From a virus (Monodnaviria; Loebvirae; Hofneiviricota; Faserviricetes; Tubulavirales; Inoviridae): a stretch of DNA of 7,781 bases. Numbering within the stretch: position 1 is the first letter of the stretch; every line of letters begins with the position of its first letter. The stretch is from the IMG/VR virus record IMGVR_UViG_2600254997_000002. One strand, given 5' to 3'. The notes under the pieces were generated by a model. It searched no databases. It was not told the origin of the DNA and saw nothing but the letters and a program-made list of their open reading frames with translations. The translations under genes and the position numbers were made by a program. This document shows positions 549-7,781 of this stretch, piece after piece.

Positions 549-634
549 TCCCTTTTCCTGCATTCAGCAGACTACCCGCGAAGGATCGAAAGGATACGGT
601 TTAACTGGAAACCCTTGAGTTTCCGTTGACTCTA

Positions 635-662
635 CCCCCGTGTTACAGGACGGGGGTTTTCT
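635..662 (+). terminator. rho-independent terminator downstream of the 70-aa regulator gene
   Basis: Stem CCCCCGT (635-641) / ACGGGGG (650-656), 8-nt loop, then TTTTCT (657-662). Confidence 0.6.
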
Positions 663-700
663 CCGACCTGCAAACATAGCCCCGCTCATCCGTAACGGCA

Positions 701-794
701 GACGACGAATCATCATCATCGTGATCGTCGTCCGTCGTCACGGCAGGCGCTCCCGTCCTCGACCCTGCGGGCGGGTGCGGCTGGCGTGACGACG
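701..794. other. pair of adjacent GC-rich hairpins (candidate packaging signal or origin structures)
   Basis: Hairpin 1: GACGACGA (701-708) pairs with TCGTCGTC (725-732). Hairpin 2: CGTCGTCACG (733-742) pairs with CGTGACGACG (785-794), with further interrupted GC pairing inward (744-746/781-783, 748-750/777-779, 752-758/769-775). Confidence 0.4.
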
Positions 795-860
795 TTCTAC
801 TTCCCTTTTCTTCTTCATCGGCGTGCTGGCGTCACAGATACGTCAATACACAACAGAAAA

Positions 861-966
861 CGACACAGTGCGCACAATGGCGTTATGTGTAAAAAGGCCA
901 CTGCGGTGGAGAGTATCGCAGCGGCCTTTTCAACATAACGCGTGTCACATTATGCGCACTGTTATC
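861..966. other. candidate XerCD-dependent attP: two inverted dif-like sites flanking a GC hairpin
   Basis: Plus strand 867-893: AGTGCGCACAA-TGGCG-TTATGTGTAAA. Minus strand 960..928: AGTGCGCATAA-TGTGACACGCG-TTATGTTGAAA. Compared with E. coli dif as I recall it (GGTGCGCATAA-TGTATA-TTATGTTAAAT). The two sites are an imperfect inverted repeat around the 896-926 hairpin. Confidence 0.5.
889..926 (-). terminator. rho-independent terminator for the minus-strand phage operon (weaker in the plus direction)
   Basis: 10-bp stem GGCCACTGCG (896-905) / CGCAGCGGCC (917-926), 11-nt loop. On the minus transcript the stem has one G.U wobble and is followed by UUUUU; on the plus strand there is an A.C mismatch and only TTTT. 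Confidence 0.5.
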
Positions 967-1220: not shown

Positions 1221-3535
<2,315 letters not shown>

Positions 3536-3546
3536 AAATCACCCTC

Positions 3547-3837
<291 letters not shown>

Positions 3838-3851
3838 TCACCACCTGATTA

Positions 3852-5501
<1,650 letters not shown>

Positions 5502-5810: not shown

Positions 5811-6059
5811 TCAGATACTTCTGATGGCTCCCCATACTTTACGAACGCCAGCAAAAGTCAGATAAACTGTAACTCCTGCAACACCGATAGAAAGAATAAC
5901 AGCAGAAACAGAAGACATATCAATGCTGTTAGTCAATGATGAAAAATCGACTGTACCAGCAAAAGACGGAGATACAGCAAGAGCAGAAGCAGCGGAAAAA
6001 GATAAAGCTGCAACTTTCTTATCAACACCCTTAAAAAAATTGGTCATTTTTGCAAACAT
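5811..6059 (-). CDS. major coat protein (pVIII-like), start revised to the first ATG
   Basis: The track ORF (5811..6086) starts on TTG. The first ATG is at 6057-6059 (complement), 8 nt after SD AGGAGA (complement of 6068-6073). Signal peptide MFAKMTNFFKGVDKKVAALSFSAASALAVSPSFA, then an about 48-aa mature peptide with a hydrophobic core and basic C-terminus. Confidence 0.75.
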   Translation of the reverse strand: MFAKMTNFFKGVDKKVAALSFSAASALAVSPSFAGTVDFSSLTNSIDMSSVSAVILSIGVAGVTVYLTFAGVRKVWGAIRSI

Positions 6060-6099
6060 AATTAAAGTCTCCTTATTAAACTCCAAATTGTGGAAATAA

Positions 6100-6238: not shown

Positions 6239-6583
<345 letters not shown>

Positions 6584-6611: not shown

Positions 6612-7781
<1,170 letters not shown>

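Follow-up and report, generated by a model that had tools for sequence, protein, structure and literature searches.

CTXphi is an integrative mobile element exploiting Xer (IMEX) and gives its name to the CTX-type. Its attP1 has a central region of 12 bp and its attP2 one of 5-7 bp; neither works as a duplex, and XerC alone recombines only the folded (+) strand (PMC4246890, PMC3089051, PMC3442271). The integration product consists of one regenerated dif and, at the other end, two non-functional dif-like sites together (PMC3089051). CUS-1 and YpfPhi, the backbones of which share 99% identity over 7.1 kb (PMC4266046), have also been assigned to the CTX-type (PMC4246890 Table, PMC3089051, PMC4266046). 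Direct ssDNA integration of these two phages was inferred earlier from sequence (PMC3089051, citing Val et al. 2005; PMC4246890 Table; PMC4266046; PMC3442271).

The locus described here occupies positions 865-962 of a 7,781-base window (the whole stretch of DNA that was analysed). These positions are almost certainly a XerCD/dif attachment site, and the hairpin that they encode probably acts as a folded single strand in the manner of CTXphi. Taken as a whole, the reading that 865-962 is the attP of an integrase-less temperate E. coli inovirus, which would enter dif via host XerC/XerD according to the ssDNA-fold model, has a probability of about 0.82 in our estimate.

The window is one inovirus genome unit with its genes on the minus strand, and from general inovirus biology we take the coding strand to be the packaged strand. 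The minus strand encodes a Rep_trans-family initiator (6612-7781), a 111-amino acid protein at the position of the ssDNA-binding protein (6239-6574), the major coat protein (5811-6086), a pIII-like protein of 549 amino acids with a long Gly/Thr/Ser repeat (3852-5501), a pVI-like DUF2523 protein (3547-3834), Zot/pI (2477-3535), and a gene IV-like secretin, pIV (1221-2480). A divergent ORF of 71 amino acids is on the plus strand (333-548). The hairpin site is intergenic, approximately 255 nt past the secretin gene and between the convergent pIV gene and 71-amino acid ORF. An integrase gene had been thought absent, and this was borne out: no recombinase domain was found in the 20 window ORFs scanned against Pfam, and none of the seven window ORFs scanned against PHROGs matched an integrase family. 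Megablast and blastn gave no match to the window or the hairpin among GenBank phage records, protein searches returned distant metagenomic inoviruses only (best pI match 39.5%), and an Rfam scan of the window gave no match.

Two other features of the window were observed. The pIII-like gene contains a long (Gly-Ser-Gly-Thr)n/(Gly-Thr)n coding repeat at 4050-4560 with high G+C and strong GC skew, and its annotated length varies among lysogens; in the two tandem copies of one genome (L008) the gene is 1668 and 1614 nt long. A second strong inverted repeat is at 733-794, with 85% complementarity between its 26-nt arms. The core of this repeat, CCCGCCCGCAGGG.CGAGGACGGGAGC, is preserved in an IS110-type relative that has no dif hairpin (L115, described below), which makes the repeat a candidate for a packaging signal or an origin of the minus strand.

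As in CTX-type elements, the phage genome has two dif-like sites that are inverted and only a short distance apart. Site 1 is read on the minus strand from 960 to 928 as AGTGCGCATAA-TGTGACACGCG-TTATGTTGAAA. Its XerC-type arm (950-960) matches dif at 10/11 positions, its central region (939-949) is 11 nt long and starts with the same TGT as the dif central region, and its XerD-type arm (928-938) matches dif at 9/11. Site 2 is read on the plus strand at 867-893 as AGTGCGCACAA-TGGCG-TTATGTGTAAA, with a XerC-type arm at 867-877 (9/11), a 5-bp central region at 878-882, and a XerD-type arm at 883-893 (8/11). Central regions of 11 and 5 bp mean that neither duplex site has the canonical 6-8 bp, and TGT beside the XerC arm is common to attP and dif; both are CTX-type features. 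The earlier note had quoted both strings, and they were found exactly where it placed them, with the arm scores and the non-canonical spacers that it gave. The E. coli dif against which it scored them, GGTGCGCATAA-TGTATA-TTATGTTAAAT, was also correct, as read at the empty MG1655 site beside hipA. Single arms are at chance level in the window: two XerC-like arms with up to two mismatches were seen (2.08 expected), and 49 XerD-like arms with up to three mismatches (36.8 expected). The case therefore rests on the composite arrangement, the fold, and the junctions.

The coding (minus) strand of 855-972 has a minimum free energy of -38.7 kcal/mol as DNA, compared with -14.8 +/- 2.8 kcal/mol for shuffled sequences (z = -8.65; none of 200 shuffles was as good), and the plus strand of the same interval has -34.9 kcal/mol (z = -7.9). 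The hairpin at 865-962 (inverted repeats I5 and I6) dominates the predicted fold of the entire intergenic region. Its basal stem is 15 bp long and pairs 865-879 with 948-962; it consists of the 11-bp XerC arms, where the site 1 arm and the complement of the site 2 arm pair on the coding strand with a single T.G wobble, two flanking pairs, and TG/CA from the spacers. A one-sided 6-nt bulge, TGACAC (942-947), follows within the site 1 spacer, and the central region of site 2 is fully paired with TG...GCG of that spacer. The XerD side is a continuous 25-bp helix (880-905 with 917-941) made up of GCG, the XerD arms, and a G+C-rich extension, with one bulged C and two G.T wobbles, and it is closed by an 11-nt loop (906-916). 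Intrastrand pairing of both sites in the (+) strand is thus predicted to build duplex XerC and XerD arms, as in the CTX-type. The pairing scheme put forward in the earlier note stood in that the sites do pair within one strand, and the model changes its details: the XerC stem is 15 bp rather than 12 bp, the one-sided bulge replaces an asymmetric bubble of 7 versus 2 nt, and the continuous helix replaces an 8-bp XerD pairing.

Prophage copies were sought by megablast of the window against 5426 complete E. coli genomes. Copies covering at least 80% of the window at 98-99% identity are present in 15 genomes. In strains AST240, JNE070796, JNE21-003, two RIVM strains, and S21EC, the element is adjacent to hipBA, and its coding strand is directed away from hipA. 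All six window-type lysogens that were read base by base (L001, L002, L006, L007, L008, and L116) are at dif by hipA. At the left junction, the host flank and host XerC arm (ttggtttatgtt-GGTGCGCATAA) are joined to TGTGACACGCG-TTATGTTGAAA and the remaining hairpin. Between tandem copies, gataac-AGTGCGCATAA is joined to TGTGACACGCG, and at the right junction gataac-AGTGCGCATAA, with the site 1 XerC-type arm of the phage, is joined to host TGTATA-TTATGTTAAAT and the host flank, so that dif is regenerated. The empty MG1655 site by hipA reads cttggtttatatt-GGTGCGCATAATGTATATTATGTTAAAT-catgtctgag and has the same left flank as the lysogens. In E24377A, a relative with the replication module of the window is inserted, and both flanks are identical to the MG1655 empty site. 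Tandem copies occur in L002, L006, L007, L008, L116, and L003, and single copies in L001 and L117. The 61-nt right-junction query was found at full length in 16 of the 5426 genomes, always in the chromosome, and the left junction of the hairpin family was found in 123 genomes. Sixteen complete E. coli genomes carry prophages of this element at dif beside hipA.

Host and phage differ at position 960 (G in the host, A in the phage) and at position 946 (A of TGTATA in the host, G in the phage). The left junction combines the host G with the phage spacer, and the right junction combines the phage A with the host spacer. From this difference in the arm and the divergence after TGT, the crossover can be placed within 947-959 on the minus strand, an interval that contains the predicted XerC cleavage point between 950 and 949. 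As in the CTX-type, the crossover is at the XerC side of the site with the long spacer, both attP sites are at one end of the prophage, and dif is regenerated at the other. An earlier expectation, that the prophage would be found at dif by way of host XerCD, agrees with these lysogens beside hipA, whose junctions are those predicted for XerC exchange at site 1.

A variant of dif itself was seen in the same searches. In approximately 390 E. coli genomes, the match to the right-junction query is limited to its final 29 nt (C-AGTGCGCATAATGTATATTATGTTAAAT), which means that the XerC arm of their dif carries A instead of G at its first position. In E24377A, an A-type XerC arm is the right end of another dif-integrated inovirus. 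Occupancy by an IMEX may generally leave this A as a scar or marker.

In the proposed mechanism, the two inverted dif-like sites would anneal in the packaged coding-strand ssDNA. Annealing would produce an XerC-binding arm in duplex form, a short central region with 5 nt opposite 11 nt and the 6-nt bulge, an imperfect XerD-binding arm, and the G+C-rich stem-loop. With 5 nt, the bottom-strand spacer falls short of the 6-8 bp found in canonical Xer sites and of the 7 nt in attP2 of El Tor CTXphi. XerC would cut the phage strand between AGTGCGCATAA and TGT and exchange it with the top strand of dif, the common TGT would stabilise strand exchange, and replication would resolve the pseudo-Holliday junction. 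The observed left end carries the host XerC arm, the 11-nt spacer, and the intact hairpin sequence, and the right end carries the phage XerC arm and TGTATA-TTATGTTAAAT; the former is a non-functional duplex site and the latter a working dif. Tandem arrays could arise by new integrations or by rolling-circle replication across tandem copies.

The same hairpin architecture is present in Yersinia pestis (YpfPhi), Klebsiella michiganensis, Erwinia, Enterobacter, Kluyvera, Lelliottia, Phytobacter, and Rosenbergiella, and in approximately 45 inovirus-sized IMG/VR contigs. Most of the 55 matches of the contig pattern scan were chance matches in unrelated phyla that lacked an inverted arm, and about a dozen Enterobacterales loci were retained. 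One sequence with a truncated site 2 (L039) and one chance palindrome (L050) were left out of the alignment. The alignment comprises 33 distinct hairpins, drawn from Yersinia pestis (YpfPhi), Klebsiella, Erwinia, Enterobacter, Kluyvera, Lelliottia, and IMG/VR contigs; 95% of its cells are paired, compared with 29-54% in slid registers. Changes on both sides of a pair occur at nine pairs (mean of 1.3 in 500 shuffles, none of which reached nine), most of them contributed by three divergent sequences (L030, L100, and L026) in a set of interrelated sequences. This covariation is supportive of a folded site without being overwhelming. The family was retrieved by a pattern that fixed the site 1 XerC arm, TGT, and TTATG, and those columns carry no information; entropy is 0.24 bits in the stem columns outside the pattern, 1.08 bits in the bulge, and 0.85 bits in the loop. 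Family members have site 1 spacers of 9-12 bp.

In 32 of the 33 variants, the fold of the coding strand is more stable than that of its complement (mean difference -1.7 kcal/mol), because G.T wobbles, which recur at columns 8/88, 28/74, and 30/71, turn into A.C mismatches on the other strand. In the fold model, such an advantage is expected if the packaged (+) strand must fold. Folded ssDNA as the substrate is thus what second-site conservation, covariation, and strand asymmetry suggest when the sequences are compared.

Longer hairpins of 118-120 nt were also observed in a Pseudomonas sp. sequence (L014), in L060/L079, and in L072. They have a site 1 spacer of 9-11 nt and a site 2 spacer of 6 nt, and the intervening sequence between their sites is unrelated. 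The Actinomadura contig L060 is identical to IMG/VR contig L079, and contamination is possible. From these sequences, the hairpin design may extend beyond Enterobacterales.

A natural control is provided by a relative in E. coli E600003 (L115, 3574-13228), in which pI and pIV are 100% identical and the coat protein is 97% identical to those of the window. In place of the replication side it has an IS110-family transposase and a replication endonuclease, and it also carries a phospholipase D-family gene. This element is integrated between hcxB and ybiB rather than at dif; neither a dif-like site nor the dif hairpin was found in it, and it retains a homologue of the second hairpin (733-794). Conversely, the S21EC prophage (L116) has an unrelated Rep and an HTH repressor together with an identical hairpin, and it is in tandem at dif. 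These two elements show that the dif hairpin goes with dif integration. Eight more genomes (H17 and H19-H25) give a partial match like that of L115.

The junctions prove the site and the side of the crossover rather than the substrate; XerC-only exchange on duplex site 1 would lead to the same product. Recombination by XerCD on the double-stranded site 1 of the replicative form, XerC-first as in the VGJphi-type and with the inverted second site irrelevant, would fit the prophage junctions equally well, and site 1 does have the better arms (10/11 and 9/11). We nevertheless regard it as unlikely, since the site 1 spacer of 11 bp (9-12 bp in the family) is outside the 6-8 bp of Xer sites and attP1 of CTXphi, with 12 bp, does not function in duplex form (PMC4246890). 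The conservation of site 2 and its covariation with site 1 across divergent phages, the better folding of the coding strand in 32/33 variants, and the free drift of unpaired positions in comparison with stems also argue against it. Extrusion of the same folded site as a cruciform from the supercoiled replicative form, instead of from the ssDNA genome, would give an identical product, and the repeat is long, nearly perfect, and able to fold on both strands. This is highly improbable: a need for both arms to form would leave no selection for the consistent coding-strand advantage, integration of the duplex does not follow simply from one XerC exchange into an arm, and precedent is absent from the cited literature.

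A different type of alternative is that the hairpin is primarily a structural signal for packaging, minus-strand initiation, or termination, like the hairpin after gene IV of Ff phages, and that its likeness to dif is secondary. Its intergenic position, approximately 255 nt past the gene IV-like secretin and between convergent units, would suit such a signal. The G+C-rich stem extension and loop at 894-927 (AAGGCCRCTGCG/CGCAGYGGCCTT, with the 11-nt loop at 906-916) would also suit it; as RNA, this inner stem-loop folds at -28.1 and -27.8 kcal/mol in the two directions, and T-runs come after it, T5 on the coding strand and T4 on the opposite one. The dif crossover, however, maps within the hairpin. 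In addition, the T-run is interrupted (TCTTT) in the CUS-1 class, and the U/A runs beside the inner stem are the outer halves of the XerD arms. A consensus promoter/terminator scan of 1-1400 did not flag the hairpin, because that scan takes loops of 3-8 nt only and the 11-nt loop exceeds its limit. The relative with identical pI and pIV and 97% identical coat protein keeps a homologue of the second hairpin and is without the dif hairpin; the dif hairpin would therefore not be needed for packaging by the shared morphogenesis proteins, and the Ff-type packaging-signal reading was rejected on this indirect ground. A primarily structural role is thus very unlikely. Nevertheless, from its position and modelled RNA fold, 894-927 is plausibly a bidirectional terminator, and such a role may coexist with that of attP.

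With the folded attP as the preferred reading, the distribution of the hairpin among backbones is of interest. Identical or near-identical hairpins are found with at least three replication modules and two structural modules, and copies that have decayed accompany non-phage cargo, both at dif and on large plasmids, where IS elements carry them. Tentatively, and with somewhat less than even confidence, we suggest that the dif-mimic hairpin is a portable attP cassette swapped between otherwise unrelated inovirus backbones. If this is true, the deposition of defence-like genes by phage-derived Xer cassettes would make dif a hotspot that has been under-appreciated.

Several observations on module boundaries and remnants accompany this distribution. 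Window 549-866 and the hairpin base (855-866) form a module boundary: the sequence just outside site 2 differs among prophages that are otherwise 98-99% identical. The window, L008, and L116 have agaaaacgacac here, and L001, L002, L006, and L007 have tgaatacacaac. One hairpin is combined with three replication modules, and one Rep module is combined with two structural modules (E24377A). Hairpin-like sequence corresponding to window 868-937 (site 1 XerD arm, loop, and site 2) at 80-86% identity is present in 923 of the 5426 complete E. coli genomes (approximately 17%), including 482 places on plasmids. In the copies that were read (L004, 5950-6070; L007, 6213-6350), a shared 50-nt sequence, TGTCAAAGCTCAGTGAAAATGTCTAATCACTGGCTCATTA.AAATGTCCA, is in place of the site 1 XerC arm and spacer. 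On the ATCC 11775 plasmid, this 50-nt sequence comes after an IS200C tnpA fragment, and a gene of the STM4504/CBY_0614 family comes after the remnant. At dif of the RIVM strains, the remnant is followed by a SIR2-family gene and an ISNCY fragment. From their sequence context, the remnants look like decayed Xer elements with defence-like cargo.

The route to the prophage state is hereby explained for a filamentous E. coli phage that has no integrase. Prophages of this kind are found in strains isolated from people, O166:H15 among them. Integration is predicted to be XerC-dependent and essentially irreversible, and virion production is predicted to depend on tandem copies.

VGJphi- and TLC-type IMEXs, like this element, use host XerCD at dif and have no integrase. 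In contrast, theirs is a single duplex attP with a near-canonical spacer and reversible integration (PMC4246890). Two inverted sites with spacers of 11 and 5 bp place the element described here outside the VGJphi-type.

The likeness to CTXphi is much closer. Both have two inverted dif-like sites in an intergenic region, where the end of the late/cargo operon meets the divergent repressor-side genes. In both, one spacer is over-long and starts with TGT (12 bp in CTXphi, 11 bp here) and the other is short (5-7 bp in CTXphi, 5 bp here). Neither has an integrase, and both form prophages at dif in which one end carries the entire hairpin sequence and dif is regenerated at the opposite end; tandem prophages occur in both (PMC4246890, PMC3089051). 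There are also differences. The arms here resemble the dif of E. coli (GCGCATAA) and not that of V. cholerae (GCGTATTA). An interval of 34 nt separates the two sites and is fully base-paired, which gives one continuous hairpin, whereas the sites of CTXphi are approximately 90 nt apart in a forked hairpin of approximately 150 nt. A one-sided 6-nt bulge in the central region and a 5-nt bottom-strand spacer also distinguish the fold described here, and the phage encodes its own secretin and a Rep_trans-type initiator. The element has all of the computationally testable features that define the CTX-type IMEX class.

CUS-1 and YpfPhi have a homologous hairpin of the same architecture, with approximately 84% identity over window 868-959. 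In the CUS-1-like NC101 prophage, the hairpin reads GGTGCGCATAA-TGTCAACGCG(10)-TTATGTTGAAA ... GGTTCGCACAA-TGACG(5)-TTATGCTAAAG, with spacer lengths in brackets. This prophage is likewise in tandem at dif beside hipA, and dif is regenerated at its 3' end. The remainder of the phage differs from that group: compared with the L003 and L024 prophages, pI is 36-38%, pIV 39%, pVI 45%, and the coat protein 47% identical, and the Reps are unrelated, that of the window being of the Rep_trans type and that of the prophages annotated as II/X family. The phage is neither CUS-1 nor YpfPhi. The strategy of CTXphi is thus extended to a further inovirus lineage. The mechanism itself was already known; what the present analysis adds to the earlier CUS-1/Ypf prediction is comparative evidence, namely covariation, strand asymmetry, and a relative with an IS110-family transposase and without the hairpin.
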